From Planctomycetota bacterium (GTDB lineage Bacteria > Planctomycetota > B15-G4 > SIAN01): DNA of 21,076 nt. Where the stretch lies: contig JANNXA010000006.1 of the NCBI GenBank assembly GCA_031409275.1, positions 1 to 21,076 on the forward strand. Reading direction: 5' to 3'. How positions within the stretch are numbered: the first letter of the stretch is position 1; every line of letters begins with the position of its first letter. The position numbers and the translations under genes are program-made. The notes under the pieces were generated by a model. The model was not told the origin of the DNA. It was given only the letters and a program-made list of their open reading frames with translations, and searched no databases. Shown in pieces: positions 1,146 to 20,302 of the stretch.

Positions 1146-1617
1146 GCTGGCCCACGAAGACTCCGAAGGTGGAAACGAGGTTGCGTTCGAGCAGGGGCGC
1201 GGGTGCGACCATCGCATGGCGAAGGTGCGCGCGCCAGTCCCCGAGCGCACTGCCGCCTTCACCGTGATCGATGTTCGCGGTCTGGAACGCGACCACCGCC
1301 GATTCGAGCACCGAAAGCAGCGGCTCCCAGCTCGTCAGCTGCGCCGCACCGGCCGGCCCCGCTTGCGGCTCACCGCTCGAGTGGATCGCCATCGGCAGCT
1401 CGGCGGCGGTGACCTTCGATTGGCAGTCGACCCCTTCCGCGAATGGCAACGGAGTCGCGTCGGCCACCTCGATCTCGAAGCAGATCAACGGCGCGCCCCG
1501 CGCCGGCGCGACGGTGCCGACCGGCGCTGCCGAGGCGGCGGCCAGTGCGCTTGCGCTGCACGCGAACGAGATCGCGATCCAGCGCAGCGATGGAGAGATG
1601 GGCCTATCCCTCGTCAC
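1087..1617 (-). CDS. Secreted hypothetical protein (~176 aa) in the ECF operon
   Basis: The GTG at 1617..1615 overlaps the upstream TGA (GTGA). It has a signal-peptide-like N-terminus (LRWIAISFACSASALAAASA) and GC-rich third codon positions. Motifs GAPLICFEIEVADATPLPF and HLRHAMVAPAPLLERNL. Its stop overlaps the start region of the sigma gene. Confidence 0.7.
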   Translation of the reverse strand: MTRDRPISPSLRWIAISFACSASALAAASAAPVGTVAPARGAPLICFEIEVADATPLPFAEGVDCQSKVTAAELPMAIHSSGEPQAGPAGAAQLTSWEPLLSVLESAVVAFQTANIDHGEGGSALGDWRAHLRHAMVAPAPLLERNLVSTFGVFVGQHDLESMRAAVAGDAARRDH

Positions 1618-2525
1618 GAGTCGACTTGGCTCACCGAGATCGACAGCGGCGAAAGGACGCCGCGCAGCCGCGTCGCGAGGTTGGCACACGGCTCCTTGGT
1701 CCAGACCATCAGCGTCTCTCCGTCGCCTCCAGGCGACCACGCCAACACCTGCTCGAGCGACGCGATCGCTTCAGCGACCGGTTGCCACTGCGACGCCGCG
1801 AGCGGAGCTGCGAGCGTCACCGTCGCGCGGGCGGCGCTCTCCGGCCACTCGACCAGCCGCGTCGACTCGGCGCGAACTCGGCTCGCGGTCGCGCGTGGCG
1901 ACGCGCTCGCCAGCGCCTTCGCCAGCGTCGCTTCGAGCTCCGTTGCGGTCGGGGGCGGTGCCGCGAACCGGCCACGCGCCTTGCCATCGGCGCCCACTCG
2001 CCACTCGGTCGCGGCCGGCAACGCGGCGGCGAGCTGCAATTCCAGCGCACCGCACGTCGCCTGGTCGAAGCGAGCGTCGCGTGCCAGCAGCTCGATTTCG
2101 AGCTCGACGACGGAGCGGGTCGGCGGGGCGCCCGACGTGAACCCTTCGCCCGCGAACCCCGCCTTCTTCAGCGCCTCGATCACCTCTCGCTCGAGCAGCG
2201 TGGCGCCAGCGGTCATGGAGATCGTCGCCGTCTTGCAGTCGAAGACGAGGCTCGCGATCCCTTTCAGCGTCGACAAGGCCGCACGGACCTTGGGGCCGCC
2301 GCTTCAGCCAACGCCCGGGATCTTCACCGTGTAGGCCGCGCTGGCGCCCGCCTTGACCGCCGGAGCCGCCGGCGCGGCTTGCACCTGCTGCTCATCGGGA
2401 CTGATCGCGCGCGCCTTCGTGCACGCCGACCCCGCGAGGCAACACCCAAGTGCGAGCAGCACGCCCGAGCGAACCCCGGCACGCGTGCCGCGACTCAACT
2501 GCCACTTCGACGACTGGACCTGCAT
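1614..2525 (-). CDS. Candidate exported selenoprotein with an HMA (heavy-metal-associated)-like domain; in-frame TGA at 2306..2304 (codon 74, putative Sec); ~303 aa
   Basis: Track ORFs 2304..2615 and 1614..2276 share one frame. Read through, it gives AYTVKIPGVG-U-SGGPKVRAALSTLKGIASLVFDCKTATISMTAGATLLEREVIEALKKAGF, an HMA-type pattern with the TGA at the first Cys of GMxCxxC. ATG 2525 has GAGGAG upstream; an alternative in-frame ATG is at 2585. The N-terminus is signal/lipoprotein-like (VLLALGCCLAGSAC). A SECIS-like hairpin follows the TGA. Confidence 0.75.
2266..2303 (-). promoter_or_regulatory. Putative bacterial SECIS element
   Basis: mRNA right after the UGA: AGCGGCGGCCC CAAGG U CC GUGC GG CCUUG UCGACGCU. 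The upper stem CAAGG/CCUUG + CC/GG begins after an 11-nt spacer, has a bulged U, and closes a loop starting GU. A lower stem pairs AGCG with CGCU and CGG with UCG. Folded by eye. Confidence 0.65.
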
Positions 2526-2626
2526 CCTCTGCTCCTCGCGCGCCGCGCCCCGATCGGTCGGCCACGAGCGAGCAGGAGGCGTCATCCCCCGAAGTGTTAA
2601 CCACCGCCGCCACACCCAACGGTGCT

Positions 2627-2738: not shown

Positions 2739-5700
2739 TCACGGCACGAGGACGCCGAACCAGCGCAGGCTGTTGGCGGCGCGGCCGGTGACCTGCAGTT
2801 CGACGGAGTGGCCGACCGGGAGGAGTGCGGCGGGGAGCGTCAGCGTCATGATCCCGGTGGCGTCCTCGCTGTTGGCGGCGCGGCACTCGAAGTCGAGCTC
2901 GACGTCGCCATCGGCGGAACGCCAGCGAGCGTCCGTCCGGATCGCCTCGAAACCGAGCCACTCCTTGCCATCGAGCGCGAGCGTGAAGCCGGCTCCCGGT
3001 TGCGAGCAAAGGCCCATCGCCGCCGCGAAGCGCAGGCGCACGCGCGACGCGTCACCCGCCAGCGGCTCCGCCGCGCCCGTCCTCCAGCGCACGCTGCCGG
3101 TGCCGTCGAGCTGCCGGCAGTAGTGCATCGGCACGACGCCGAGCCAGCTCGGCTGCTGGAAGTCATCGAAGCGCGCGAGGAGCCGCGCGAAGCCGTTCAG
3201 CGGGCGAGCCGCGAGTTCAGCGCGCGCCGCCGCGATCTGTTCCGGGTTCATCGTGCCGAGCGCGATCGGTCCGCTCTGCAGCCACGCGATCAGGTCGGCG
3301 AGGTCCTGCGCCGCGAGCCCTTCCTCCAGCCCATCCGGCATCAGCGAGAGCTTCGAGGCCTTCACCTCCTTCACGTCTCGACGTGCCAGCACCCGCTTCA
3401 TGTCGTTCGCCTGCAGCAAGGTGAACCCGCCGCTCGACTCGCCGCGGATCAGGCCGGAGAGGTCGCTGCCGTCGTGCAGCACGACGCGGTAGTTGACGTA
3501 CTCGCCATTCACCGCGGCGTTCGGATCGAGGATCGATTCGAGCAGGCGCGGCGCACTGCGATCGCCGAGCGCGGCGAGGTCGGGACCGACGCCGAAGCCG
3601 GTGCCGCGAAATGAATGGCAGCTCGCGCACAACTTGGCGAAACGCTCACGCCCGCGACCGAGATCCCCTCGCAGCTGCAGCGCTGGCTGGAACTGCGCGA
3701 TCACCTGCGCGCGCTTGGGAGTTCCGGCGGGCGCAAGCAGCTTGCCCACGCGCTCGCGCAGCCCCGCGTCGTCGACGTGCAGCAACTGCTCGCGCGCCGC
3801 CGCATCGAGCAGCGTGCGCGACACGGCGCCCGACTCGAGCGCCGCGACCAGATCGACGCGCCACTCGGCCCGCGACAGCAGCAGCGCCAGCGCCTGGCTG
3901 CACAACTGCGGGAGCATCCGTGGCAACGCCTCGAGCAGCAGACCCTGCAGCGGCAGGTCGGTGCGACGAGCGAAGGCGTCGAGCACCGCGTGACCGACGT
4001 CGACCGGCTGCGTCGGGTCGAGGAATCGGGCGAGAGGGTCGAGCAGGTCGAGGCCGCCTTGGTCGAGCGGCGCGGCGCCGCCCTGCCGGAAGAAGAGTGC
4101 GAGCGCGGCGGTCGCGGTCGGCGCGTCGATCTCGTCACGCTTGAGCGCCTCGACCGCAGCGCCGAGCATCTCGGTCAACCGCTCGTCGAGCGCGAAGCCG
4201 CCCGCTGCGAGCCGGCGCGAATCGTCGCGCGCACACGAGTCGACGAACCAATGCTCGTCCGCCAGCTCGCCGTGGCTCTCCATCCCTTGCAGCAACGGCG
4301 CGACCGCGCGCCAACGCCACACCTCGCTTGCCGCCGCATCGTCGTGGCCGACCAGCGCATCGAGCACATGAAGCTTCTCGTGGTGGGATTCCGGCGGAAG
4401 CGCGCCCGCCGTCGTGACGACGGCATCGAGCGCCTGCTGTTGCGCCGACGTGCGCTCCATCACGGCGAGCAGCGCCTCCAGCAATGCCGCGGCGTGGATC
4501 GGCGCCGCGCTGATGGCCGCCGCGCGGATCCACGGATCGTCGGCGTAGGCAACGATCGCCTCGCCGAGCAGCGTGCCCGCGAGGCGGGTCTTGCACTCGC
4601 CGAGCGCCATCACCGATGCCAGGCGCTCGGCGCGCGTTGGCTCGAACGAGGCGCGCGGTGCGGCGCCGTCGGGCAGACTCGTATCGAGCTCCTTCCAGTT
4701 CGCGGGCGTCCAGACGCTCCATTCCGTCACTGGAACGGGCGGCGCCATCGATCCACCCACGTCGTTGGCAGCGCTCGATTCTTCCGTCAGCGCGACAAGC
4801 CATCGCTCGGCCAGCGGCATGCAGGCGGCACGCACGTCGGGCAGCTGGTTCAGCGCTAGCAGATCGCTCACGTCGTCTTCCGCGAGCCATCCCAGCTGCT
4901 CGAAGCACCACGCCTCCTGCACCTTCGCTGCCGGAGTCCGAGCGCGCTGCTTCGTCGCGAGTTGGGCGGCGGCGCGCGCCCCGAAGGAGTCCGACGCACC
5001 GCGCTCCGACTTCGTCACCTTCGCCAGCAGCTCGCGATGCGCCAGATCGCGGACGACGCCGTTGTCGGCGACCAACGCCTCGCGCAGCTCGCTCACGCCA
5101 GTCGCCGCGAGGTCGGCGACCTTGCGCAGCGGCGCCCCCTTCTTCACGACGCGCCACAGCCGTCCCATCGTCGCACCGGCGCGCACGTCGAGTTGCGCGA
5201 GCTTCGCGGCCGGGATCCAGCGCGGGTGCTCGATCACGAAGCGGTACATGTCGACGATCCACAACGCGCCATCGGGCCCGGTCGTCGCCTGCACGGGCCG
5301 AAACCACGGGTCGCGGCTCGCAAGGAACTCGCGCTGCTGCTCCTCTGGCGCGCGCCGTCCGGTGGCGCAGGAGCCGTCGCGATCGAGCACGGTGCGGCGC
5401 ACGACGTTCGCCACCGGTTCGCAGGTGAAGGCGTTGCCCTGGAACTCCGCGCCAAGCCACGTATCGCGGTAGATCCCGAGCCCGCACGCCGCCGTCACTC
5501 GACTGGCATCGCCGGCATCGTTGAAGCGCTCGAGCACCGTGCTGATCTGGAAGAGGCCGCGCGGATCCGCGTCCGCCAGCACGTTCCAGCGCGGATCGAG
5601 CGGCGCGACGAACGGGTTGCGGCGAAGCACGTGATCGGCGAGCGGGAACTGGAAGAGCAACCAGCTCGAGTCGCAGCCGAACCAGCGGCCGAAGTCATCG

Positions 5701-8540
5701 CGCACGCGACCTTGCTGGCTCGTCCCCTCGATCGCCTCGATCACGCCGCGCGCCGGGTCGATGCGGAAGTCGCGGCCGCGGCAGTCGACGGGCGCGAGCG
5801 CCAGCGGCGCGGCGCCGCCCGAACGCCCGAGCGCCTCGTGCTTGAACCCGGTGATCTCGCCGCCGAACAGCCCGCAACTGCCGTAGATCCAGCCGTCGAG
5901 CCCCCACGAGAGCGAGTTGACGCGCGCCTGGTAGTTCTCCGTCGAGAAGCCGGTGAAGAGCACCTGCCTCACGTCGGCGCGACCGTCGCCGTCGCTGTCT
6001 TTCGCGTAGATGACGTCGGGCGCTGCGCAGATCAACGCGCCGCCCCTCCACGCCATGACTCCGGTCGGGAACGGCAACCCCTCCACGAAGACGCCACTCG
6101 CCTCGTAGCGTCCATCGCCGTCACGATCGCAGAGCCACGTCACGCGGCCACCCGGCGCGTAGTTGCCGTCGAGCCCGGTCGGGTAGTCGTTCATCTCGCA
6201 GACGTAGACGGTGCCGTCGGCCGCGAAGTCGATCGCGACCGGGCTTTGCACTTTCGGTTCGCATGCGACCAGTTCGATGGCGAGATCGTCGCGCGACAGC
6301 TCGAAGTGGCGCTGCGAATCAGCGGCGCTCTTCGCACTCGGAAAGCGCGGATCGTCCTCCACTGCCGCGAAGCCGTCGGGCAGCAGGCGATGGACCGCGG
6401 CCACGAGGAGCGCCTCGACGCCGCTCGCCAACGGGCCGGGCCGCCCGTAGTAGGTCATCGCGCCCCCCGCTTCGTAGCCGCCTTCGCGCAGGATGCGCTC
6501 GCTCGGGATGTAGCACGGCACGTCGTTGCTGTAGGCACTGATCCAGAGACGCTCGCGGTCGAGCTCGCGCTTCAATCGCAGCGAGTAGTCGACCACCACT
6601 TCGCCCGGCAGGTAAAGCTGCGCGAGCGCGTCGCCCCATCGCCACACCTGCACCGAGTAGGGCAGCGCCGTCGGCAGCGTCTCGCCCCGATCCAGCCGCG
6701 CGAGCCACTGCGCCGCATGGAAGCCGATCGCCCCGCCCGCCTTGACGCGAGCCTCCCACTCGGCGCGCGCCGGGAGCGGCGCATACGGCAACTCGAAGCG
6801 CTCGATCGCGACGGTCGGCGCACCGCCGTCGCGCAACAGCGGCACCAACGGCCCTGCCAGCAACCGCTCGACTTCGTCGGCGACGCTCTTGCCGTGGCGT
6901 TGCGCGACCCGCAGGTCGGCGGTCGGGCCATCGAGCGGATTGGAGTCGGCACCGCAGCCGATGACGGTCAACGCCACCGCGTCCGCGTGGGTCGCCTCGA
7001 TCGCTTCCGACGCGTAGCCGGCCCAATCACCGCAATGCTGGTTCACCGCGCCGTTGCAGGTGGTGCAGTGGCAGGCGTAGTTCTGCAGCGTGGCGAGCAA
7101 CGAGCCGTCGGTGCGGAACGCGGCCAGCAGCGGCAGCGAGTGGTCGACCGGCCCGCCGACGTTGCGACGGTTGCGCGCGAAGGTGACGCTTCCCTCGCTC
7201 CAGGCAAGTTGCGCCGGCACGCGCGCCGCGACCGCCGCGAGCGCCGCCTCCTCCATGCGATCGACCAGCCAGGCGCTGTAGCGCTCGATCCGCTGCCACT
7301 GATCGGCGGGGATCGGCCGCCCGAACATGCAGTCGATGCCGCCGTCGAGCACCGGCGTCGTATGGGAGTGGGTGACGCTCAGCGTGAATCGCTCGCGCGC
7401 GAGTCCGACCTTCGCCGCCAGCCGCGTCGCCACGGCATCGGTCATTCGTTGCGGCACCGCCGTGTTGTCGAGCGCAAGCTGTACGGCGAGCTCCGGCCCA
7501 TCGCCGATGGCCAACGCGCGCACGAAGAGCGGCTGCGCCGCGCTCGTCGCTTCCAGCTCGCGCGAGGCGTAGCCGCAGAGGCGGATCGGGAAGTCGGGAG
7601 TCACGTCGACCTTCGCGGCACCGACCGGCACGGTGGGCCGCCAGAGGTCGGCGAGCCCACCCGGCAACGCATGCAGCGCAGCGACTTCGGTGTCGCTCAA
7701 CGCGCGCTCGAACCAGGCGACCTCGTCCATCCAGCCCACGTAGTTGAGCCCCAGCACCACTCGCTGGTCCGGCACGTTCCAGGTCCACGTCTGCGTGCGC
7801 GGCGCCAGCGTCGCAGCGAGCGTTCCGTCGAGGTACATCCGCGCGACGCCATCGGCCGCGCCGCTGTTGAAGCGTTCGAACGCCAGAACCACATGCGTCC
7901 AGCGCTCGCCGAAGAAGTCGTCCGCCGCGACCTGCGCCAGAGACTTCTCCGCGAAGGCGAGCGCCTCCCAAGGCTTGCTCGAGGGGTTCCAGACCGCGTG
8001 GTCGGCGTAGGCGCCCATGCGAAAGTGGCGGAAGTCGGCTCGCTTCTCGAATTCGCAGAAGAGGCCGGCGTCGTTCCAATCCTTCGCGGTGACGGTGATC
8101 GGGTCGCAGAAGCCCTCCGGCAGCTCGCCCTGCGGCGCGGCGCGCAGCCAGAAGGAGAGCGTCCCGCTCCAGTCGCGCGCGCGCCACGGCGTATTGCCCT
8201 CGCCGTGGAAGAAGAGCAGCTCGTCGGTGCGGCGATGGAAGCGCAGCGCCTGCCCGCGCAACGCGCCGCGCCGCTCGCGTGTGACCGCGCCGCTCTCGAC
8301 GAGGCCGGGTTCGCCCACCCGCGGCGGCCCCCAACTCGCTCCGTGGTGGAGACGGCCATCGCCGCGCGCGACGTCGGCGTCGAGCCCCGCATCGAAGGTC
8401 GCCGCGAACGTGAGCGACTCGCGCAACGCCGTGCGGACCGGAGCCGCTTGAGCCGCGGCCCGCTCGCCACGACCTGCGATCACGAGCAACGACGCGAGAG
8501 CTGCCGAGTTGGCGACGCGCAGGGCCTTGGGCCACTTCAT
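2739..8540 (-). CDS. Giant secreted fusion (~1933 aa): LamG-like jelly-roll + neutral/alkaline ceramidase-like domain + PVC-type membrane-bound dehydrogenase beta-propeller + HEAT-like repeats + cytochrome c (CxxCH) + extra C-terminal domain
   Basis: Signal peptide MKWPKALRVANSAALASLLVIAG with GGGAG upstream. LamG-like: GTLSFWL...WTHVVL...MYLDG...YVGWMDEVAWFERALSDTEVAAL. Ceramidase-like: GAAKVDVTP...LCGYASR...THSHTTP...NYACHCT...GEVVVDYSLRLK...YIPSERILREGGYE. TIGR02604-like: ELVACEPKVQSPVAIDF...GLPFPTG...WGLDGWIY...WFRPV...GPDGALWIVDMYR. Heme domain: CASCH at 3615-3629, then VGPDL and SLMPDGLE. Confidence 0.92.
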   Translation of the reverse strand: MKWPKALRVANSAALASLLVIAGRGERAAAQAAPVRTALRESLTFAATFDAGLDADVARGDGRLHHGASWGPPRVGEPGLVESGAVTRERRGALRGQALRFHRRTDELLFFHGEGNTPWRARDWSGTLSFWLRAAPQGELPEGFCDPITVTAKDWNDAGLFCEFEKRADFRHFRMGAYADHAVWNPSSKPWEALAFAEKSLAQVAADDFFGERWTHVVLAFERFNSGAADGVARMYLDGTLAATLAPRTQTWTWNVPDQRVVLGLNYVGWMDEVAWFERALSDTEVAALHALPGGLADLWRPTVPVGAAKVDVTPDFPIRLCGYASRELEATSAAQPLFVRALAIGDGPELAVQLALDNTAVPQRMTDAVATRLAAKVGLARERFTLSVTHSHTTPVLDGGIDCMFGRPIPADQWQRIERYSAWLVDRMEEAALAAVAARVPAQLAWSEGSVTFARNRRNVGGPVDHSLPLLAAFRTDGSLLATLQNYACHCTTCNGAVNQHCGDWAGYASEAIEATHADAVALTVIGCGADSNPLDGPTADLRVAQRHGKSVADEVERLLAGPLVPLLRDGGAPTVAIERFELPYAPLPARAEWEARVKAGGAIGFHAAQWLARLDRGETLPTALPYSVQVWRWGDALAQLYLPGEVVVDYSLRLKRELDRERLWISAYSNDVPCYIPSERILREGGYEAGGAMTYYGRPGPLASGVEALLVAAVHRLLPDGFAAVEDDPRFPSAKSAADSQRHFELSRDDLAIELVACEPKVQSPVAIDFAADGTVYVCEMNDYPTGLDGNYAPGGRVTWLCDRDGDGRYEASGVFVEGLPFPTGVMAWRGGALICAAPDVIYAKDSDGDGRADVRQVLFTGFSTENYQARVNSLSWGLDGWIYGSCGLFGGEITGFKHEALGRSGGAAPLALAPVDCRGRDFRIDPARGVIEAIEGTSQQGRVRDDFGRWFGCDSSWLLFQFPLADHVLRRNPFVAPLDPRWNVLADADPRGLFQISTVLERFNDAGDASRVTAACGLGIYRDTWLGAEFQGNAFTCEPVANVVRRTVLDRDGSCATGRRAPEEQQREFLASRDPWFRPVQATTGPDGALWIVDMYRFVIEHPRWIPAAKLAQLDVRAGATMGRLWRVVKKGAPLRKVADLAATGVSELREALVADNGVVRDLAHRELLAKVTKSERGASDSFGARAAAQLATKQRARTPAAKVQEAWCFEQLGWLAEDDVSDLLALNQLPDVRAACMPLAERWLVALTEESSAANDVGGSMAPPVPVTEWSVWTPANWKELDTSLPDGAAPRASFEPTRAERLASVMALGECKTRLAGTLLGEAIVAYADDPWIRAAAISAAPIHAAALLEALLAVMERTSAQQQALDAVVTTAGALPPESHHEKLHVLDALVGHDDAAASEVWRWRAVAPLLQGMESHGELADEHWFVDSCARDDSRRLAAGGFALDERLTEMLGAAVEALKRDEIDAPTATAALALFFRQGGAAPLDQGGLDLLDPLARFLDPTQPVDVGHAVLDAFARRTDLPLQGLLLEALPRMLPQLCSQALALLLSRAEWRVDLVAALESGAVSRTLLDAAAREQLLHVDDAGLRERVGKLLAPAGTPKRAQVIAQFQPALQLRGDLGRGRERFAKLCASCHSFRGTGFGVGPDLAALGDRSAPRLLESILDPNAAVNGEYVNYRVVLHDGSDLSGLIRGESSGGFTLLQANDMKRVLARRDVKEVKASKLSLMPDGLEEGLAAQDLADLIAWLQSGPIALGTMNPEQIAAARAELAARPLNGFARLLARFDDFQQPSWLGVVPMHYCRQLDGTGSVRWRTGAAEPLAGDASRVRLRFAAAMGLCSQPGAGFTLALDGKEWLGFEAIRTDARWRSADGDVELDFECRAANSEDATGIMTLTLPAALLPVGHSVELQVTGRAANSLRWFGVLVP

Positions 8541-8573
8541 CACGCACTCCCTACGACGCCGATGCGCACGACC

Positions 8574-8603
8574 TTGGACGGCCGAATCGAGGAGGCGTAC
8601 ACT
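8574..8603 (+). promoter_or_regulatory. Candidate sigma-70 promoter for the FHA gene
   Basis: TTGGAC (8574-8579), an 18-nt spacer, then TACACT (8598-8603), in the divergent intergenic region ~75 nt upstream of ATG 8681. Confidence 0.35.
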
Positions 8604-8680
8604 CCCGCCCTCCTGCGAAGGCGTCAACTGTCGTCCCCCGTGAAGTGCTGCGCGCCGCGCCCTGCGCCCCGGAACCTGCG

Positions 8681-9565
8681 ATGACCGAGCAAGACCTCGC
8701 CGCCGCCCTCGAGATCATCAAAGGATCGGAGAGTGGCCGACGTCTGCCTCTGTCGGCCGGCACCACGACGCTCGGCCGCGTCGCTGGCAACACCCACGTG
8801 GTCGTCGACTCGACCGTCTCGCGCCAGCACGCCAAGGTCTTCACGCGCGACGGCCGCCACTGGATCGCCGACCAGAACTCGAGCCACGGCACCTTCGTGA
8901 ATGGCGCGAAGATCACGCTGCAGACGCTCGCCGATGGCGACGAAGTGCGTCTGGGCACCACGGTGATGCGCTACGTCGCGACGCAAAAGCAGGTGCCGGC
9001 GGCCCCGCCCGCTGCGCCGGCGCTCTTTCCTGCGGAAGCGCCCACCGGCTCCTTCGAGCTCGAACTCCCCGACGCGGAGGAGCTCGCGCCGCGCAAGCCC
9101 GCGGCCACCGGTCCGGTCCCGCCAAGCCAGCTTCCACCACCCGCTCGCGAGCTGCGCGCGCTCACCGAGGCGGGCGAAGATCCCTTCGCCGACGAGGCGA
9201 AACCGGCCGCGAACAGCGCCCCTTCGATCGAGCTGCGCGGCGAGACGGCGCGCCACTTCGCCTCGCGATCGAGCGGGCAGCCGGTGCCGGCCGCTTCACC
9301 GAAGGCGCAGACCGCTCACGTCCCACCGCCGATCGCCAAGCCGCCGCGCTCCCGCGGCCCGTTCTCCTTCGTGCGAGACGAGCTCGATCAGCGCGGGCCC
9401 GCCGCCCGCATCGTGGCGCTGCTCTTCGCGATCGGCGCGGCGGCGCTGCTCTTCTGGCTCACGCTGCGCGCCTTCGACCTCGCGCCGAAGCACGCACCCG
9501 ATGCCACCCTCGAAGAGGAAGCTCCAAGCGGCCCGTCGCGCCCGATCCTGCCGACCCGCCGCTGA
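8681..9565 (+). CDS. FHA domain-containing membrane protein (~294 aa)
   Basis: N-terminal FHA motifs: TTLGR...VSRQHAKV...WIADQNSSHGTFVNG...LADGDEVRLG. Then a Pro/Ala-rich linker and a C-terminal TM helix IVALLFAIGAAALLFWLTL. ATG 8681 is preferred over the track's 8645. Confidence 0.9.
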   Translation: MTEQDLAAALEIIKGSESGRRLPLSAGTTTLGRVAGNTHVVVDSTVSRQHAKVFTRDGRHWIADQNSSHGTFVNGAKITLQTLADGDEVRLGTTVMRYVATQKQVPAAPPAAPALFPAEAPTGSFELELPDAEELAPRKPAATGPVPPSQLPPPARELRALTEAGEDPFADEAKPAANSAPSIELRGETARHFASRSSGQPVPAASPKAQTAHVPPPIAKPPRSRGPFSFVRDELDQRGPAARIVALLFAIGAAALLFWLTLRAFDLAPKHAPDATLEEEAPSGPSRPILPTRR

Positions 9566-9592: not shown

Positions 9593-11545
9593 TCACTTGC
9601 GAAGCATCTTCGCGGAACCGTGTTCACCGAGGCATCGCGCTCGCACGACGATGGAGTGCGTGCCGGGCGGCACGACCACGCCGCACAGATGGCCGAAGGC
9701 CGGCGCGATCGAAACGGCAACGCCATCGAGCTCCGCTTCGAAGAGGCGATGCCAGCGCCCCAGATCGCCCGTGACCCAACGCAGCGGATCGGCCACGCGC
9801 AGATAACTGCCGGCGACGACCAGGAACGCCATTCGATCGACCGCGACCGTCGCTCGAACCTGCGGATCGAAGAGTCGTGACGACGTCGAATCGTTCACGG
9901 CGTCTTCGACCGGTTCGAGCGACCATTCGAGCGTCGATGTCGGCAGGTGATCGCCGAGTCCCTCGACTCGTTGTTCCACGAGCACATGCTCCTGCGGATC
10001 GACGAGTTGCCGCACGCGTTCAAGGAGAGCCTCCTCGAACGCGAGGTCCGCGAACACGTCACCATCGAGCGGCCGCGACACGACCTCCACTCCGCCGGCG
10101 AGGAACACCGGCGGCAAGGGACGACGAAGACCGAGCGGCGCGTCCGTCGCGCGGGCGATGAACCGCTCTCCGTCCCACTCGAACGGAACGCGCGCGGCGC
10201 CCGGCACCTCCTCCAACGGCACCATCGAGAAGTAGCCGGTGGCCGTGCATAGGGCCGCGTCGTTTGGCGGCGGAACGAGCATGGCACGGGTGAGCGCGGG
10301 CTGCAGCGAAAGCACGACGTCGTGCAGGTATGCCGGTGCGTTGATGTAGCGGATGCGATCGAGGTCCTTCAGGGAGGGAGCCGCGGCACGCACGCCCTCC
10401 GCGACCTGGCGTGCTTCTCGATTGGCGCTCGCCAACGCGTCGAGACGCGACTCGGCCTGCGTGAAGAGAATCGCCGCGAGAGCGATGACGCTGCCGGCGC
10501 GGGCCACCACGACGACCCTGCGACTCGGGCGACCCGATCGGCACGCCAGCCGCAAGAGCCCCTCGGGCACGGCCGCCGCGAAGAGCAACGCCGAAAGCGC
10601 GTGGGCGAGCAGCGCGTAGCGATCCGTGTGGCCGACAACGGCGAACGGAAAGCAGGTGGCGACCGTCAGCAAAGCGAGGAATCGACACTGCCGCGTCCGC
10701 CACGCTCCCAGCGCGATGAGGAGCCACGCGATCCACGAGATCCACGGCGCGCCGGTCAGCAGATCACCACCGAGGCCACCCTCGAGGTAGTGAGGGACCA
10801 CGTTGCGCACACATGCCCACAGGGATCGCAGCGAGAGTCGCTCGGAACGGTCAGCCGCAACTCCGCCGACTTCGAGCCAGTGCAGATGGATGAAAACCAG
10901 CAGCGCGACCGGCAGCAGCAGGAGGAGCGCATGTCGGCGACGCACGGCAAGGCTCGGCGGCACCAAGCAGAGCAACGGCGGCAAGAGCGCGAGCGGCCAT
11001 GGAGCCTCGCTGCTGGCCAGGCCCATCACCATCCAAACCAATCCGCGCCACGCGAAGCCCCCCCCCCCCGCGCGCGAAGAGCGGATGAACTCCGTGGCTG
11101 CCAGCAACGTGAATCCAACGCCGAGTGACCACGAGGCGGCGACGGGCCACGCCGCGGTGGTGACATTGGGCGGCGCCAACAAGAAGAGCAGCACCCCACC
11201 CGCAACGGTGCGACGCGGGAGCGCAATCGAGCGCCCGAAGCGGGCCAGCGCGAATGCCGCGAAGGCGAAGGCTGCCAGCGCCAACGCTCGCAGCCCCACG
11301 TCGTTTCCGCCGGCGAGCCGATCGACGCCCGAATGCAGCAGGTGAAACAGCGGGCGCCAGAAGGAGTTGATCACTTCCGACTGCGACGGCAGGAAGAGCT
11401 CGGCGGTGGAGAGCAGTCGTGTCTTTGCGCGGATCGGGTAGCTGTCCAGCAGCGTCGGCTCGAACAGGAAGCGGCCAGGCAACGCAGCGATCGCCACCAC
11501 GACCAGCAGGCCGAGCGAAAGCCGAAAGCGGTTCTGTCGTGTCAT
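9593..11545 (-). CDS. Polytopic membrane protein, GT-C-fold (PMT/ArnT/YfhO-like) glycosyltransferase candidate (~650 aa)
   Basis: ATG 11545 overlaps the helicase TGA (ATGA). A first TM is followed by a loop with LLDSY and FWRPL, then many hydrophobic segments and DRYALL. The C-terminus is YfhO-like: FLVVAGSY...AELDGVAVSIAPAFGHLCGVVVPPGTHSIVV. The family assignment comes from motif resemblance only. Confidence 0.65.
   Translation of the reverse strand: MTRQNRFRLSLGLLVVVAIAALPGRFLFEPTLLDSYPIRAKTRLLSTAELFLPSQSEVINSFWRPLFHLLHSGVDRLAGGNDVGLRALALAAFAFAAFALARFGRSIALPRRTVAGGVLLFLLAPPNVTTAAWPVAASWSLGVGFTLLAATEFIRSSRAGGGGFAWRGLVWMVMGLASSEAPWPLALLPPLLCLVPPSLAVRRRHALLLLLPVALLVFIHLHWLEVGGVAADRSERLSLRSLWACVRNVVPHYLEGGLGGDLLTGAPWISWIAWLLIALGAWRTRQCRFLALLTVATCFPFAVVGHTDRYALLAHALSALLFAAAVPEGLLRLACRSGRPSRRVVVVARAGSVIALAAILFTQAESRLDALASANREARQVAEGVRAAAPSLKDLDRIRYINAPAYLHDVVLSLQPALTRAMLVPPPNDAALCTATGYFSMVPLEEVPGAARVPFEWDGERFIARATDAPLGLRRPLPPVFLAGGVEVVSRPLDGDVFADLAFEEALLERVRQLVDPQEHVLVEQRVEGLGDHLPTSTLEWSLEPVEDAVNDSTSSRLFDPQVRATVAVDRMAFLVVAGSYLRVADPLRWVTGDLGRWHRLFEAELDGVAVSIAPAFGHLCGVVVPPGTHSIVVRARCLGEHGSAKMLRK
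11058..11069 (-). repeat. Homopolymer G12 tract (C12 on +) inside the membrane glycosyltransferase-like CDS
   Basis: The + strand reads gaag-cccccccccccc-gcgcg. On the minus strand it reads GCG GGG GGG GGG GGC (A-G-G-G-G), currently in frame. Confidence 0.9.
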
Positions 11546-14500
11546 CGCGGCGCGGGTCGCACGACATCCTCCGTCAGCTCGCAGCGCCCCGCGGCGGCGA
11601 GGTCGACCAGCGTCGCGCGAAGTAGCGCGCGCGTCTTCGACTGGACCGACCTGAAGCCCAGCAGGCGCGCCGCTGCGGCAGCCACGTCGTCGGCCGCGCC
11701 GCCACCGCCGGCGGCCAGAACGTGGAGCAGCGCGTTGGCACGCTCCTCGGGCGCGATCTGCTCGGCAGGACGGGGCGCCTCTTCTGGCGCGGCCCGGCGC
11801 ACGAGCGTCCACGCCTGCGGATCGATCGCGGCGGACCAGACGAACTCGCCGCGCCGCTGCAGCCGACCCGCGGTCGCCAACGCGGCGAGGCGCGCCTCGA
11901 GCTGCTCCTCGATGGCGCCGCTCATCCGGCTGATGCCGAGGCAGCGAGCGGCTCGCTGCAGCAACGGCTTCTCGTGGAGTGGCGCTTCGGCATCGACGAT
12001 CCGCAGCAGCAACTCCTCCAGACGTAGCGCCGCGCCCGGATCGTCGAGGTCGGCGCGCGTGCCCGCGACGACAACTTCGAACGAGCGGTAGAGCGGCGGC
12101 TCGGCGCCCGCCGGCACGCCCGCAGCAGCAGCGGACACCGTCGACGCGGGCTCCACCACCGGCGGCGCGGGGAGCGGTGCCGACGCGACCACGCTTGCCC
12201 TCGTCGTGGGCGACGCCGATGCGCTCGCCGCGCGCTCCTGCGCCGCCTTCGCCGACTCCGCCTCGTGCTCCGCCTTCTCGACCGATTCACGCGCCTCGCG
12301 CAGCGCAGCCTCGACGCGCTCGATCTCCTGCACGCGCCGCTCGCTCCAGTCGGAGGACCAGATGCGATGGATGCGCCAACCCAGCCCCTCCAGCACCGAC
12401 TGGCGCAAGCGGTCGCGATCGCGCGCGGTCGCACCGGAGTGGTAGGCGGCGCCGTCGCATTCGATGCCAAGCCAATGCGAGCCCGGCCGCTGCGGATCGC
12501 GGATCGCGAGGTCGATGCGGTAGCCCGAACAGCCCACCTGCAAGTCGACGTGATGGCCGCGCTCCTCCAGCGCGCGCGCCACGTCGCGCTCGAGCTCCGA
12601 CTCGCAGGCGGACTCCGCGTCGACGACAACCGCCGCCGCCAGCGCGATCGCTCCGCGCTGCGCGTAGTCGAGGTAGTCGCGCAGATGGCGCACGCCTGGC
12701 GCAGCGCTGCGCGAGAGGTCGATCTCGTCGGCGCGCAGCGAAGAGAAGACCACCAGCCGCTCCCGCGCGCGCGTGATGGCGACGTTCAGCCGCCGCTCGC
12801 CGCCGCGCTTGTTCAGCGGGCCGAAGTTCATCGACAAGCGCCCCTGCGCGTCCTTCCCGTAGGTGATCGAGAAGAGCATCGTGTCGCGCTCGTCGCCCTG
12901 CACGTTCTCCAGGTTCTTGATGAAGAGCGGCTCGCCGCGCGCGCCACCTTCGGCGAACGGCTGCAGTTCCTGCCGTTCGAGCAGCGCGGCGTCGAGCAGG
13001 TCCTCGATCAGCTGCTGCTGTGGCTGGTTGAAGGTGACCACGCCGATCGATTGATCGCGACGCTGCGGATCGGACAGGGCGGCGACGATCCACTCGACGA
13101 TCGCCCGCGCTTCGGCTTCGTTGGTGCGCCGTCCCGCCTTGTCGTAGGTGCCGCCGACGGCGACCAACGAGACGCCGAGTCCTTGCGCGCGGCCAAAAGC
13201 CGCTGGAAAGGTGTGAAGGCGGCTGCCGTAGTAGTGGCGGTTGCTGAAGGCGATGAGGCTCTCGTCGCGACTGCGGTAGTGCCAGCGCAGCGGCAGCGAC
13301 GGCACCCCGGCCGCCTGCGCCTCTTCGAGGATGCTCTCGAGGTCGCGCACGAGCCCACCATCGGGGGCATCCGCCGCGACCTCTTCCTCCTCGTCGTCGG
13401 CCAGCGCCCGCTCGAAGAATGCGGTGGGCGGCAGCTGCTTGTCGTCGCCGACCACGACCACGTGGCGACCGCGGGCCAACGCGCCGATGGCGTCGTGCGT
13501 CGGGATCTGCGACGCCTCATCGAAGATCACCAGGTCGAAGAGCTCGCGCGAAACCGGCAGGTATTGCGCAATCGACTGCGGGCTCATCAGCAGGCACGGC
13601 TTGAGCTGCGCCAGCAGCGTCGGGATCTCGGAGAGGAGCCAGCGCACCGACTTCTGGCGCCGCTTCTTCTTCGCCTCGCGCTGCAGCGCCTCCACTTCCG
13701 ATCCGGAGAAGCCGGCGTCGGCGCGCAGCGTCCGGCGAGCCCCCCACTCGGCGACCACGCGTCGCCCTCCCGCGGCGATCAAGCGCGCATCTTCGACTCG
13801 GAACTGCAGCGCGCGTGCGTGGTGGCGCGAACCGTCGAAGTCGCGCAGCGCGGGTGCGGCGCCGATCGCATGTTCCGTCACCGTCGTGAAGAAGGCGCGC
13901 TCGAACGCGGCGGGTGCGCTGGCAGGCGGAAGTTCATCGCGGCGCACCGCATCGACGATTGGCGCGAGTTCGAGCGCGCGCGCGGCCCCTTCGGCACGCA
14001 CCAGGCGCGCGTGGGCGCGCAGCTCGGGCAATCGCGCGAGCCAGAGCTCGGCGGTCGAGCGCGCGAAGCTGAAGCCGTCGCGGGCGCTCGCGAGCCCGGC
14101 GCTCCACGAAGGCGCGACCGCGATCGCCGTCACCAGCGCCGCCAGCGCCGATTCGAAGCGGGTGAGCGCGCCCTCGAGGGCGGTGGCCGTCGCGTCGGGC
14201 GTCGAACCCAACGCGCGCATCGCCGGCGGCGTCGTGATCCCGGCCGCATTCCACTGCGGCACGAGCGCGCGCCAACGATCGAGGAAGTCGGCGACCTGCT
14301 GCAGCGCCGCGGGCTCTGTCGCGACGCCGCGCGCCGCAGCCCCAACCGTCGCTTCGAGGAACGCCGCTTCATCGGCGAATCGTCGGGCGCGCGCGACCAC
14401 GGCGAGCGCTCCCGCGAGGTCGGCGCGCGTGACCTCGACGGTCGGCGCCTTGCCGCGCAACGCGGGCGTCAACGTCGACCAGGCGCCGCGCAGCTTGAAC

Positions 14501-17500
14501 CAGCGCATCGGCGCGATCGCGTCGCCGTGTTGCGCAAAGTCGCGAGCGAGTGCGGCAACGTCGAGCTCGAAGAGGCGCTCGCTCCAGCGTGGAGCGAGCC
14601 GCTCCCGCTCGGCGCGGTCGGCCAGAAGCTCACCGGCCAGGGCCCGCAGCCGCGCGATCACCTCGCCGAGGTCGCTGCGAGTCGCGCACTCGGCGGCACG
14701 GCCCGGCAGCGGCGCCGCCAGCAGTCGCAGCGTGGCCAGCGCGACACGCGCCGCCGGCAACCCCGGCGGAACGACGACGCCAAGCGCCGCCGCGGCGGCA
14801 TCGAGCGCGCGCTTGCTCGCTTCGAGCTGCGCGAGGAACTCCCGCAACAGCGACTCGCGTTCGCGCGCCTGAAGCGGCGTGTGGTCGACCGCTCCGCACT
14901 GCGCGAACGGGTGGCTCGCCAACGGGCCGCTCATCGCCGCGACGGCGGCCGCGGCGGCCAGTTCGGCGACCGCCGCCCGACGCTCTTCGTAGCCGCGTCG
15001 ATCCACCTCCAGCGGCGCGCGCAGCGGCAAGGGCGGCAGCGTCGCGGCGTCGCGCTCGCGCACCATGCGGCCGAGGCATTCGAAGTGGTTCATCCCCAAC
15101 GGCCCGCGCCGATGGAGCGCGGCCGCGTACTCGTCGAGCTCGCGCATCAGCTTCTCGGCGCGCTCGGCCAGCAGCGGATCGTCCTCGCGTCGGACCACTG
15201 GCGCTTCGTCCAGCGTGCGCGCCAGCTCGCTGATCACCTCGTGCTTGGCCGCCCGCTGCGAATGGAGTTCGAGGCAGGCGCTCGCGAGGCCGGCGCGCCG
15301 CAGACGGTTGGCCACCACTTCGAGCGCGGCACGCTTCTCCGCCACGAACAGCACCCGTTTGCCGGCGGCGATGCAGCCGGCGATGACGTTGGCGATCGTC
15401 TGCGACTTGCCAGTGCCAGGCGGACCTTGCAGCACGAAGGTGGCGCCGCGCACCGCCGCTTCGATGGCGACGAGCTGGCTCGAATCGGAATCCAGCACGA
15501 CCCGCGCCTTCGTCGGCGGCAGCACCTCGTCGAGGCGACGCGCATCGACGAACGCGGGATCGGGCAGCGCGCCGCCATCGACCCGCTTCACCAGATGGCG
15601 CACCAGCTCGCTTTCGAGCAGCGCTTCGGAGTTCTCCTCGAGGTCGCGCCACAACAGGTACTTGGCGAACGAGAAGAAGCCAAGCCGCGCCTCCTCCACG
15701 ACGGTGAAGCGCGGCACGCGCGAGACCAGCAGCTTGAAGCGCGCCAGCAACTGCGCGACGTCGACGCCGTGGTCATCCTGCGGCAGCGCGCGCAACGGCT
15801 CGGGGTCGATGTCGAGCTCGCTCTTCAACTTCTCGAGCAGCGCATCGTTCAGGCGCGGCTCGTCGTCGCGCAGCTTGAGCGTGAAGCGGCGGGCGAGACC
15901 GCGCCGCTCCAACGTGACCGGCAGCAACAGGATCGGCGCGAGGCGACGCTGCGTGCTGGCGGGCGACTCGAACCACTCGAGGAACCCGAGTGCCAAGAAG
16001 AGCGTCGAGGAGCCGGTCTCCTCGATGTGGGTGCGGTCGTCTCGAAAGAGCGTCAGCAGTCGCGTCTGCAACTCGTCGAGCGGGTGGCGGGTGAGCAGCG
16101 CCCCTTGCGCGAGGAGATCTTGCTGCTCGGCGGCGATCACTTCGGTGGCGCCGCGCGCGGCGGAGAGCTCCGCGGCGCGCGGATCGGCGGCCGCAAGCAC
16201 GCTCTTCGGCGCGAAGTCGAACGTGCCACCGTTTGCCAGATGGTCCTCGATCGCGGCCAGCGAGCCCGCTTCGAGCACGACGCAGCGCTTGCTGTCGCGC
16301 CAGTGGATCAGCCGGTTGCGCAGCGACAGGTCGAGGAGCTGCTGCTTCCATTGCGTGAGGCGATCGGTGAGCGGCTTGTGGAGCGGCAACGCGCCATCCG
16401 CTTGCGTCACGCCCGGCGTCGCGCGCTCCTCCGCCGCGGTGGAGGCGTCGTGGGGCGCGAGCACGGCGCTGCCCGGCGTCGGCAGCGGCACGATGCCGGC
16501 ACCGCGCGCCGCCTTCACGTCGACCACCTTCTGGAAACGCTCCGGCGCGTCGAGCAGCGCGTTCGCCGCGGCGACCGCCGCATCGAAATCTCCGCCGCTG
16601 ACCAGCACCGTCGGATCGATCCAGAGCAGATCGCCCACTTCGACCAGCTTCTTCACCGTCGCGAGGTGGTCGATCGTGACGCACGGAAATTGATCGGCGA
16701 TGCGCCACACGCCGACGACCGCGTGCCCCTCCACTAGCATCAGCAGCGGATGAAGACCTGCCTGTTCGAGCATGGCCGCCACCAGCAGCGAGAGCTCGAT
16801 GCAGTTGCCCATGCGATGGGCGAGGAGCTGCTGCGGCAGTCGCAGCTTCTGCCCCTGCTTCTCGAAACTCGCCGGCAGCGCGTGGTAGGTGAGCTGCTGC
16901 GCGGGCAACGTCTCGGCCAGCGCGCGCACGACCGCATCGACCCGTTCGCGCCCGCCGCGCGGGTAGCCGGGGAACGACGGATCGCCGGTCGCCGCCCGCA
17001 GCCGGTCGCGGGCCGCGGCCAGCAGCTCGGCGACGGCGGGGTCGTTGGGCAGGACGAACGCGGCGAGCAGTTCATCCGCCAGCGAGCGCGTCCATTCGTT
17101 CCACGCCAGGATCTCGAGCGGGAGTCGCTGCCGTGCGAGGATCGCGAGTCCGAGACGCAACTCGACATGGAGCGCGCCGCTCGCCCGCTCCAGCAACGTC
17201 GCCAGGCGCGGGCGATCGAGCGCGACGTCGGGCGCGTTCAGCGTGTACGTCGCGCCGGGCTCGAGACGCGGCAGCGCGAATCGAGCGGGCGGGCCGAAGT
17301 CGGGGCCGACCTGCAGGCGCAACTCGAGCCCTTCGAGCGCCTGCGCGCCGCGGTTGGTGATCGCAACCGATTCGACCAGCGGCACGCCGTTTCGCTCGGC
17401 AGCGAACTGCAAGCGCGTGGCGTGGCGCACCTCGAGCTCGACCCGCGGTGCGACGTGGTCCGGTGCCGCGGGCTTCGCCTCCTCGCCGCGATCGCTCGCC

Positions 17501-17892
17501 GGAATCTGGCGGCGCCACTGCGCTTCGAGTTCGGCGTCCTCGGCACTGCCGCGCAGTTGATCGGCGACGCTGCGCTGCAGCGCCGCGTAGGCGCCCTCGT
17601 CGAGCCGCTCGGCAGCGAGTTCGAGCGACGCAAGTTCCGCCACCACTTCGGCAAGCCACTCCGCGCCGCGCGGCTCCTGTTCGCAGCGCGCCAGGTCGGC
17701 GGCCGCCTCCGCGTCCTGCAAGTCGAGATGGGCGCGCGACGCGAGCGGCACCGGCGGCATCGCGACTTCGCGGCGCCGCGCCGCCAACAGGCGCAACGCG
17801 AGGCGCAACGTCGCCGCCGGCGGAAGGCGCGCGTGCAGCAATCGCACCAGGGTGTCAGCGGAGTCGAGCATGCGCAGTACGGCCTCTCTCAC
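11542..17892 (-). CDS. DUF4011/DUF3320 SF1 (DNA2/NAM7-like) helicase with a Vsr/MTES_1575-like endonuclease and an N-terminal transglutaminase-like domain (Hhe-like), 2116 aa
   Basis: DUF4011 start: LTQWKQQLLDLSLRNRLI. Helicase motifs: Walker A QGPPGTGKSQT (~15398-15426), VLFVAEKRAAL, LMSPQSIAQYL, FDLVIFDEASQI, VVGDDKQLPPT, HYRSRDESLIAFSN, ENVQGDERD, RRLNVAITRAR. Nuclease: QVGCSGYRIDLAI...GIECDGAAYHS...RDRDRLRQSVLEGLGWRIHRIWS. C-terminal DUF3320-like LGFRSV region. Start GTG 17892 or ATG 17871. Confidence 0.93.
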   Translation of the reverse strand: MREAVLRMLDSADTLVRLLHARLPPAATLRLALRLLAARRREVAMPPVPLASRAHLDLQDAEAAADLARCEQEPRGAEWLAEVVAELASLELAAERLDEGAYAALQRSVADQLRGSAEDAELEAQWRRQIPASDRGEEAKPAAPDHVAPRVELEVRHATRLQFAAERNGVPLVESVAITNRGAQALEGLELRLQVGPDFGPPARFALPRLEPGATYTLNAPDVALDRPRLATLLERASGALHVELRLGLAILARQRLPLEILAWNEWTRSLADELLAAFVLPNDPAVAELLAAARDRLRAATGDPSFPGYPRGGRERVDAVVRALAETLPAQQLTYHALPASFEKQGQKLRLPQQLLAHRMGNCIELSLLVAAMLEQAGLHPLLMLVEGHAVVGVWRIADQFPCVTIDHLATVKKLVEVGDLLWIDPTVLVSGGDFDAAVAAANALLDAPERFQKVVDVKAARGAGIVPLPTPGSAVLAPHDASTAAEERATPGVTQADGALPLHKPLTDRLTQWKQQLLDLSLRNRLIHWRDSKRCVVLEAGSLAAIEDHLANGGTFDFAPKSVLAAADPRAAELSAARGATEVIAAEQQDLLAQGALLTRHPLDELQTRLLTLFRDDRTHIEETGSSTLFLALGFLEWFESPASTQRRLAPILLLPVTLERRGLARRFTLKLRDDEPRLNDALLEKLKSELDIDPEPLRALPQDDHGVDVAQLLARFKLLVSRVPRFTVVEEARLGFFSFAKYLLWRDLEENSEALLESELVRHLVKRVDGGALPDPAFVDARRLDEVLPPTKARVVLDSDSSQLVAIEAAVRGATFVLQGPPGTGKSQTIANVIAGCIAAGKRVLFVAEKRAALEVVANRLRRAGLASACLELHSQRAAKHEVISELARTLDEAPVVRREDDPLLAERAEKLMRELDEYAAALHRRGPLGMNHFECLGRMVRERDAATLPPLPLRAPLEVDRRGYEERRAAVAELAAAAAVAAMSGPLASHPFAQCGAVDHTPLQARERESLLREFLAQLEASKRALDAAAAALGVVVPPGLPAARVALATLRLLAAPLPGRAAECATRSDLGEVIARLRALAGELLADRAERERLAPRWSERLFELDVAALARDFAQHGDAIAPMRWFKLRGAWSTLTPALRGKAPTVEVTRADLAGALAVVARARRFADEAAFLEATVGAAARGVATEPAALQQVADFLDRWRALVPQWNAAGITTPPAMRALGSTPDATATALEGALTRFESALAALVTAIAVAPSWSAGLASARDGFSFARSTAELWLARLPELRAHARLVRAEGAARALELAPIVDAVRRDELPPASAPAAFERAFFTTVTEHAIGAAPALRDFDGSRHHARALQFRVEDARLIAAGGRRVVAEWGARRTLRADAGFSGSEVEALQREAKKKRRQKSVRWLLSEIPTLLAQLKPCLLMSPQSIAQYLPVSRELFDLVIFDEASQIPTHDAIGALARGRHVVVVGDDKQLPPTAFFERALADDEEEEVAADAPDGGLVRDLESILEEAQAAGVPSLPLRWHYRSRDESLIAFSNRHYYGSRLHTFPAAFGRAQGLGVSLVAVGGTYDKAGRRTNEAEARAIVEWIVAALSDPQRRDQSIGVVTFNQPQQQLIEDLLDAALLERQELQPFAEGGARGEPLFIKNLENVQGDERDTMLFSITYGKDAQGRLSMNFGPLNKRGGERRLNVAITRARERLVVFSSLRADEIDLSRSAAPGVRHLRDYLDYAQRGAIALAAAVVVDAESACESELERDVARALEERGHHVDLQVGCSGYRIDLAIRDPQRPGSHWLGIECDGAAYHSGATARDRDRLRQSVLEGLGWRIHRIWSSDWSERRVQEIERVEAALREARESVEKAEHEAESAKAAQERAASASASPTTRASVVASAPLPAPPVVEPASTVSAAAAGVPAGAEPPLYRSFEVVVAGTRADLDDPGAALRLEELLLRIVDAEAPLHEKPLLQRAARCLGISRMSGAIEEQLEARLAALATAGRLQRRGEFVWSAAIDPQAWTLVRRAAPEEAPRPAEQIAPEERANALLHVLAAGGGGAADDVAAAAARLLGFRSVQSKTRALLRATLVDLAAAGRCELTEDVVRPAPR

Positions 17893-20219: not shown

Positions 20220-20228
20220 GAGGGGCGG

Positions 20229-20234
20229 ATGGTA
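20229..20234 (-). promoter_or_regulatory. Candidate -10 element (TACCAT); near-leaderless GT4 transcript
   Basis: TACCAT lies 9 nt upstream of ATG 20219, and there is no Shine-Dalgarno sequence in between. Confidence 0.4.
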
Positions 20235-20302
20235 GCTCGCGGTCGAAGTTCGGCCCGCCGTCCGATCCGCAGACTCTTCCGATGAATGTGTCGTCGCGTC
20301 CG

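Follow-up and report, generated by a model that had tools for sequence, protein, structure and literature searches.

Does the TGA codon that breaks a reading frame in a planctomycete genome end translation, or is it read as selenocysteine (Sec, U), and what would Sec do in the resulting protein? The question is raised by a gene on the minus strand of a 21,076-nucleotide (nt) stretch of DNA (the window; contig JANNXA010000006.1 of the Planctomycetota assembly GCA_031409275.1), which an earlier note, made from the sequence alone, had read as a hidden exported selenoprotein with Sec at the metal-binding site of an HMA-like domain. We consider the gene real and the case for a selenoprotein a good one, its codon 74 very probably being decoded as Sec with SelB reading a hairpin behind it, while its function is what we infer. 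Going beyond that note, we describe the selenocysteine insertion sequence (SECIS) hairpin, a three-domain architecture and a wider superfamily with several Sec residues per protein.

One gene broken by a single in-frame TGA

The frame 2525..1614 translates to 303 codons and its sole internal stop is the TGA at 2306..2304, codon 74, in the context quoted in the earlier note, which had described two open reading frames (ORFs) as one frame split at this point. The split that it expected from gene callers occurs: our ORF finder cuts the gene into 2304..2615 and 1614..2276, and the halves present in databases are bounded by the TGA column. Its assignment of the ribosome-binding site to the upstream part likewise agrees with what we find (Table 1), the TTG at 2276, which gene callers take as the start of the 3' half, being located within a hairpin stem and having no ribosome-binding site. 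The gene lies on contig C6 of the source genome (G000; 5.6 Mb, 93% complete), which holds no paralogue of it. An assembled contig from the sequencing run X1, possibly the source of the window DNA itself, covers 1500-2700 with 0 differences; reads of the runs X3-X5 do not reach the TGA.

Table 1. Features of the selenoprotein gene and its surroundings, in positions of the window
Feature	Position	Strand	Remarks
Whole gene, predicted exported three-HMA-domain selenoprotein	1614..2525	minus	303 codons and terminal TGA
Conserved upstream GnTAAC motif, likely promoter -10 element	2596..2601	minus	76 nt before ATG; in 23/31 orthologue upstream regions
Ribosome-binding site GAGGAG	2532..2537	minus	read from the sequence; 6 nt upstream of the ATG at 2525
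Predicted signal peptide with hydrophobic stretch	2421..2525	minus	Cys35 (2423..2421) is lipobox-like and the predicted site of a lipid anchor
In-frame TGA, codon 74, very likely Sec	2304..2306	minus	TGA in 34/34 distinct genes; same alignment position as the first metal-loop Cys of MerP (1osd)
SECIS-like hairpin	2274..2292	minus	7-bp stem, loop CGUGC (2285..2281), 18 nt past the UGA, -8.8 kcal/mol
Domain 1, HMA fold	2130..2342	minus	about residues 62-132; carries U74 and C97; Z 10.8 to 1mwz; PF00403
Invariant Cys97 at the tip of the beta2-beta3 hairpin, likely substitute second ligand	2235..2237	minus	34/34; mutually exclusive with helix Cys/Sec in 71 domains
Domain 2, ferredoxin-like, without conserved Cys or Sec	1845..2123	minus	about residues 135-227; from model secondary structure
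Domain 3, HMA-like, no Cys in metal loop	1617..1841	minus	about residues 229-303; Z 8.7 to ATP7B 2ew9, Z 8.4 to ZiaA 2ofg
E278-P279-C280 motif, beta3-alpha2 loop of domain 3	1686..1694	minus	E278 and C280 invariant in 50/50 aligned rows

The TGA is conserved in all 34 genes examined

Among 60 related genomes nine gave a match, i.e. seven full-length orthologues, the locus L028, at first taken as spurious and in fact a single-domain superfamily member, and L029, which was rejected as a spurious match. Scans of GTDB (12 loci) and of metagenomes (23 loci confirmed among 46 candidate stretches) relied on patterns built from the hairpin-Cys motif around Cys97, not from the TGA. Merging of repeats and removal of the duplicate metagenome loci L078, L097 and L098 left 34 distinct genes including this one. 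The TGA is found exactly 23 codons before the hairpin Cys in the seven true relatives, in 12/12 GTDB loci and in 23/23 metagenome loci; all 34 distinct genes have it at the same column and each contains exactly one internal TGA. These genes are 20-97% identical (median 34%) and fall into 29, 19 and 12 clusters at 90%, 70% and 50% identity, respectively, with coding conservation on both sides of the TGA. Of the GTDB records 11/12 belong to the Planctomycetota and one is unclassified, and all named relatives are Planctomycetota.

Neither TGG nor TGC occurs at the Sec column among the 34 genes, and no Cys or Trp version of the three-domain architecture was found by scans keyed to the hairpin-Cys motif, which a diverged version lacking this motif would escape. 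Cys does occupy this column in MerP and ZntA and in wider relatives such as P0028. The family itself appears to have no Cys homologues, and selenoproteins of this class escape standard searches for Sec/Cys pairs. The 21 best protein-database matches all begin after the TGA column and represent the 3' half, and stubs end just before it (150 of 213 matches listed); a second search returned truncated forms in 8/8 matches. Annotation thus hides the family completely, as far as the matches listed go. Homologues with Trp, Arg or Gly in place of Sec, or halves existing as genes of their own, had been named in the earlier note as findings that would overturn it; the column holds TGA, and in no locus that was read do the halves form independent genes. 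The orthologue at L027:1486-2283(-) (genome G003) is without about 30 residues of domain 1 (helix 2 and strand 4) and retains TGA, hairpin and both Cys residues.

A SECIS-like hairpin and the selenocysteine machinery of the host

Bacterial SECIS elements are described as having a loop of 3-9 nt, a stem of 4-16 bp, a G in the loop's first two positions, a distance of 16-37 nt from the UGA and a minimum free energy of at most -7.5 kcal/mol (PMC13188914, Fig. 2 legend), and the hairpin behind codon 74, with its loop of 5 nt and the values given in Table 1, lies within all of these ranges. Taken alone it has a z of -2.8 relative to shuffles. Codon usage is constrained here: the Arg of the hairpin is encoded by CGT in 34/34 genes compared with 5% of the 521 other Arg codons in the same genes, Leu by TTG in 24/25 (5% elsewhere in these genes), Ala by GCC in 27/27 (31%) and Val by GTC in 34/34 (64%). 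Over 24 distinct rows 90.6% of the stem cells are paired, slid controls reaching at most 56%, and two stem pairs show two-sided changes, with a covariation score matched by 2/500 shuffles. Taken as one combined pattern, TGA and hairpin match a single place in the window (no match in 100 shuffles) and a single place in the whole host genome.

The host genome carries selA, selB, selD and the tRNA-Sec gene (selC), each above its curated cut-off, so that the refutation which the earlier note had tied to a genome lacking Sec machinery failed; its selD contains an in-frame TGA of its own. All 14 testable genomes with a full orthologue (the host and 13 others) have selA, compared with 290/401 genomes in a sample of the phylum, the 14 including kin and not being independent of each other. 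A crude scan of the host genome for TGA plus hairpin returned 57 candidates, about 15 of which resemble known kinds of selenoproteins by eye.

Three predicted packed domains, one of them with an altered metal loop

The joined protein matches the Pfam HMA model PF00403 over residues 66-124 (E 7e-5, 23.5 bits, gathering cut-off 24.8) and neither half alone does so; 6/9 orthologues scanned pass the gathering score of 24.8. An AlphaFold model of residues 60-303 built with 50 sequences (predicted local distance difference test, pLDDT, 94; predicted template-modelling score, pTM, 0.84) contains three rigidly packed ferredoxin-like domains, the top structural matches of which are almost all HMA domains. 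Domain 1 is closest to the N-terminal domain of ZntA (1mwz; Z 10.8, root-mean-square deviation 1.8 over 70 residues), followed by Ccc2a (Z 10.4). For domain 2, assigned from the secondary structure of the model, the fold search was a weak test (best Z 7.9). For the whole model Foldseek gave no three-domain match among solved structures (best TM-score by query 0.30), and a search of the ESM Atlas with the 3' part gave a best match of 0.84, these matches serving as leads only. A homodimer prediction for the 220-residue 3' part scored 0.00, which is no verdict and was not used either way.

Alignment places U74 on the first Cys of the metal loop of MerP (1osd), in agreement with the earlier note's placing of Sec at the metal site. 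Of the canonical GMxCxxC loop only this first position is kept, as Sec; as also noted before, the second Cys is missing, position +3 being Asn in 25, Gly in 7 and Ala in 2 of the 34 genes. Of the three distal Cys residues suggested earlier as partners, C97 and C280 are invariant, and C158 was ruled out as a ligand by its presence in 2/34 genes. We infer from topology that C280 lies near a domain junction, away from U74. A hydrophobic N-terminal stretch is present in 33/34 genes, the single exception having lost its N-terminus at a contig end, and a lipobox-like Cys (C35 in this protein) was called in 29/34 by a loose pattern, four full-length members having none. The protein is accordingly predicted to be exported and likely lipid-anchored at C35.

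A superfamily of Sec-containing HMA proteins and a proposed swap of the second ligand

A profile of the family matches 72/401 genomes of the phylum sample; a hand count finds a TGA inside the match in 57, all 57 having selA, and the two selA-negative genomes have profile matches without a stop. As read in individual loci, this wider group consists of exported single or tandem HMA proteins with 1-4 TGA codons, mostly followed by the same hairpin; their loops read U-xx(x)-C or U-xx(x)-U or contain a solo U. In a set of 71 Sec-HMA domains, which were chosen by pattern and contain near-duplicates, the hairpin Cys stands alone in 34 and a helix Cys or Sec alone in 28; nine domains have neither and none has both. 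Among the nine, L087 was mis-parsed and actually has the hairpin Cys. The hairpin Cys occupies the column in which most helix-Cys domains have Phe or Leu, and since it never occurs together with a helix Cys or Sec in the 71 domains, Cys97 is likely a substitute ligand. One scaffold existing in solo-Sec, Sec/Cys, Sec/Sec and Sec plus hairpin-Cys versions offers a natural test of the role of selenium in a metal-chaperone loop.

Two three-domain relatives, L049 and L051, have three Sec residues, and the family profile can be aligned with them along its length (E 5e-31 and 4e-29, Z=1000). Their domain 1 has a solo Sec and the hairpin Cys as in this protein, and cross-scores of per-domain hidden Markov models lend weak support to a pairing of domains 2 and 3 with theirs. 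Three or four in-frame TGA codons are present in the exported tandem-HMA genes at L049:1471-2286(-), L051:1423-2253(+), L053:1411-2271(+), L061:1453-2157(+) and L068:1198-1848(-), and in some of these U-xx-U pairs use one common hairpin. A further three-domain relative at L052:1297-1908(-) and upstream (G066:C158) has two adjacent TGA codons (UU) in its middle domain, followed by a hairpin. L063:839-2677(+) encodes three adjacent exported HMA-like genes, one in a Cys form, one in a U-xx-U form and a third with U-x-x-U ahead of a Cys-free HMA domain; similar clusters are present in L108 and L109.

Proposed function and alternative readings

The proposal that Sec74 and Cys97 bind a soft metal ion (Cu+, Ag+ or Hg2+) in a two-coordinate Se-metal-S site of a predicted exported three-HMA protein stands, in our estimate, at an even chance. 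It is supported by the fold and by the position of U74, both matching HMA metal loops, by the precedent for Sec in such loops (PMC13188914 Table 1), and by the superfamily member at L103:5600-11995 (G192:C1), a two-Sec HMA gene divergent from genes for ArsR, a CusB-like fusion protein and a resistance-nodulation-division (RND) pump and flanked on the opposite side by another RND gene. According to this model SelB would read the hairpin to insert Sec at codon 74, and the selenoprotein would be exported and anchored by a lipid at C35. Domain 1 would have lost the helix Cys of its CxxC loop and use Cys97 instead, the resulting Se-metal-S site of U74 and C97 would face the periplasm, and the protein might scavenge, buffer or hand on a soft metal independently of any mer or cop operon. 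Domains 2 and 3 may form a rigid scaffold or docking surface, and C280 may have a structural role or be another reactive site. By HMA topology and by comparison with MerP, C97 would lie beside the metal loop; MerP F38 presumably sits beside the loop, and our literature search found no confirming paper.

Several observations weigh against this proposal or parts of it. In longer windows the hairpin does not exceed shuffles in stability (z -0.17 and 0.69, the former for 50 nt) and another fold wins at 34 nt, so the case for a SECIS rests on conservation; the structure tested for covariation was derived from the same sequences, a circumstance in its favour. No His is conserved, and the loop has lost the Met of GMxC. 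No neighbour, metal-handling ones included, is conserved across 14 family loci, a metal-handling neighbour was seen in 1/20 superfamily loci (47 of 163 called ORFs scanned), and the host genome, at 93% completeness, gave no MerT match and no MerA over the cut-off. The hairpin Cys is probably of single origin, which makes its exclusivity one event and not 34, and eight related domains have Sec but no Cys partner, so that a second ligand is not obligatory.

The alternatives concern either the decoding or the function. A true stop at the TGA, explained by pseudogene formation, faulty assembly or a pair of small genes, would agree with the splitting by gene callers and with the use of TGA as terminator in 2112/2514 long coding-like ORFs of the host genome; we hold this to be very improbable, given the same TGA in genes down to 20% identity with conservation on both sides, rare codons fixed in the hairpin only, selA in all 14 carriers tested, and the position of the stop, which would sever the first strand of a domain folding confidently only when joined. 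Even less credible is a reading of the TGA as Trp (genetic code 4) or another residue, for which one could cite the W at Sec columns of the superfamily database proteins P0023, P0041, P0043, P0046, P0047, P0048, P0107, P0122 and P0124. TGA being the dominant stop of the host excludes TGA=Trp, no TGG or TGC is found at the column in the family, and the W forms of two clusters lie on contigs no longer than 1.4 kb, members from longer contigs ending exactly before the W. These W forms are best read as gene-calling artefacts, probably TGA translated under code 4 on short contigs as judged from the protein records, and W at Sec columns in database proteins becomes a way to spot hidden selenoproteins.

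Accepting Sec, a possible but doubtful alternative is that the protein uses its HMA scaffold for redox chemistry in the periplasm, where Sec74 would attack an oxidant or disulfide, Cys97 would resolve the intermediate as a selenenyl-sulfide and Cys280 would relay electrons from DsbD/TlpA-type partners. The three invariant chalcogen residues would fit one catalytic and two resolving positions, the host has many thioredoxin-, peroxiredoxin- and MsrA-like TGA candidates, metal-transport neighbours are missing and redox functions are assumed for the majority of selenoproteins (PMC13188914); however, fold and Sec position are those of metal-binding HMA loops, close superfamily members retain GMxU-xx(x)-C/U loops, and topology puts C280 at the domain end opposite to the metal loop. 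We regard it as rather improbable that Sec acts as a sensor or sink, for example by trapping selenium or mercury or as a redox switch at a protein-docking surface, and that a structural disulfide joins C97 to C280. Exactly two invariant Cys residues in an exported protein suggest a disulfide, and the rigid domain packing (pTM 0.84), relatives with up to four Sec and the use of solved HMA domains as protein-binding surfaces would be compatible with such a role, but C97 is also present in the tri-Sec proteins L049 and L051, which have no C280, and the topology places the two Cys residues at different ends.

Returning to the soft-metal site, we tentatively extend it to a model for the whole group, which we think less likely than the site itself: an obligate-selenium family with a rebuilt HMA site (Sec on the loop, Cys on the hairpin, possibly Cys280 as third donor or relay) would be part of a phylum-wide, unannotated set of exported proteins with 1-4 Sec-HMA units forming a selenium-based periplasmic trap or shuttle for soft metals such as Hg, Cu or Ag. 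It would work independently of mer and cop operons and be present in a sizeable part of the Planctomycetota (the 57/401 genomes with a TGA-containing match). Should the protein bind Hg or Cu, it would connect selenium use with the handling of metals in a phylum that is widespread and largely uncultured.

Relation to known HMA proteins and selenoproteins

The protein is a new family with a proposed new ligand arrangement within a known kind, the HMA selenoproteins, and reaches the cut-off of no curated model. With HMA domains (PF00403: MerP TIGR02052, 1osd, 1afi; CopZ/Atx1; ZntA; CopA/ATP7B) it shares the fold in domains 1 and 3 (Z 10.8 and 8.7), and like MerP it is predicted to be exported, with Sec74 in place of the first metal-loop Cys. 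In contrast to the known domains it has Sec for Cys, no second loop Cys, no Met and the invariant Cys97 and C280, and it comprises three rigid domains, one with a site, in mostly lipoprotein-like members outside mer and cop operons; TIGR02052 (cut-off 92.55 bits) does not match this protein, which has no mer neighbours.

P1B ATPases with UxxC and the UxxU metal-binding (seleno)protein NF041115 are listed among 119 selenoprotein families (PMC13188914 Table 1). NF041115, a 'putative mercuric reductase' in reviews, is likewise an HMA-fold selenoprotein, but differs by its 74 positions, its UxxU motif and its 95-bit cut-off, three family members scoring at most 23.7 bits and superfamily members at most 70.6; it gives weak matches in 9/50 family rows (best E 3.5e-7) and none for this protein. 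The MerT/CopZ fusion-like heavy metal transport selenoprotein NF045683 also has a CopZ-like domain, but its MerT-like membrane part is absent here, where scores are at most 53 bits compared with a cut-off of 375; a scan of 101 genomes for NF045683 gave no match, and none for the controls, and carries no weight. Sec-containing P1B-type ATPases (UxxC; TIGR01525) have Sec in metal transport in common with the function proposed here, which comes with no ATPase fusion and no UxxC. A Global Ocean Sampling survey has a selenoprotein row 'Mercuric transport protein MerP' with two sequences (PMC2398784, in its accessible part), a precedent for Sec in a MerP-like protein to which a relation is possible, the comparison being by description only. 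The uncatalogued multi-Sec HMA repeats of Planctomycetota (L049, L051, L053, L061) share the hairpin, signal peptides and tandem domains and differ in having 2-4 Sec and no C280.

An exported tandem-HMA protein with a solo Sec is absent from the 2026 catalogue in PMC13188914 Table 1, from NCBIfam 20.0 and from the accessible part of PMC2398784. Full-text literature searches, covering accessible parts of PMC13326102, PMC12013277, 10.1101/2022.07.06.499078, PMC1976440, PMC3466566 and PMC9312934 among others, gave no description of the family, and Planctomycetes are not named in the accessible parts of the selenoprotein literature searched (including PMC13326102, PMC12013277, 10.1101/2022.07.06.499078, PMC2398784 and PMC9312934).

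Genomic context and further observations

The GnTAAC motif upstream of the gene is found 36-89 nt upstream in 23/31 orthologues; in the host genome it occurs in 45 upstream compared with 4 internal windows (3329 crude gene calls), being also present upstream of ORFs read by eye as the housekeeping genes secA, metK, tpiA and fur. It is likely a promoter -10 element, and a candidate for the housekeeping one of this lineage, which supports the gene being transcribed on its own. A scan for sigma-70 consensus and terminator found nothing. Upstream lies an element resembling a repetitive extragenic palindrome, with perfect 18-bp inverted-repeat arms at 2633-2650 and 2717-2734 separated by a 66-nt spacer; its arm has 56 copies in the host genome at two or fewer mismatches, often paired or clustered.

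Two orthologues of the same genus share only the upstream DUF7133/cytochrome c gene and the downstream region, which in the window holds an extracytoplasmic function (ECF) sigma factor. In the window the former is a 1,900-residue laminin-G/ceramidase-like/DUF7133/cytochrome c fusion (2739-8627, minus strand), and the latter comprises the ECF sigma factor and, after it, a possible anti-sigma factor without a Pfam match (564-1097, minus). The remaining neighbours are an FHA protein (8645-9565, plus), a DUF4011/helicase/MTES_1575 nuclease/DUF3320 protein (11542-17892, minus) and two GT4 glycosyltransferases (17941-20330, minus). Two heavy-metal P1B ATPases are encoded elsewhere in the host genome.

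By eye the host looks rich in selenoproteins, with TGA-plus-hairpin candidates showing TlpA/thioredoxin-, peroxiredoxin-, MsrA-, AhpD- and glutaredoxin-like motifs at C7:86341(-), C7:112758(-), C47:5887(+), C43:53376(-), C34:159256(+), C45:88346(+), C37:62433(+), C51:406320(-), C51:271010(-), C28:70576(-) and C51:106506(-). Candidates without family placement are located at C43:63697(+), C23:25248(-), C34:64177(-), C14:295797(-), C34:79169(+) and C14:123038(-); C34:64177 and C14:295797 have a U-S-x-x-W-R-x-V-like context in common, and the hairpin loop of C43:63697, CGUGA, resembles that of the selenoprotein family described here.

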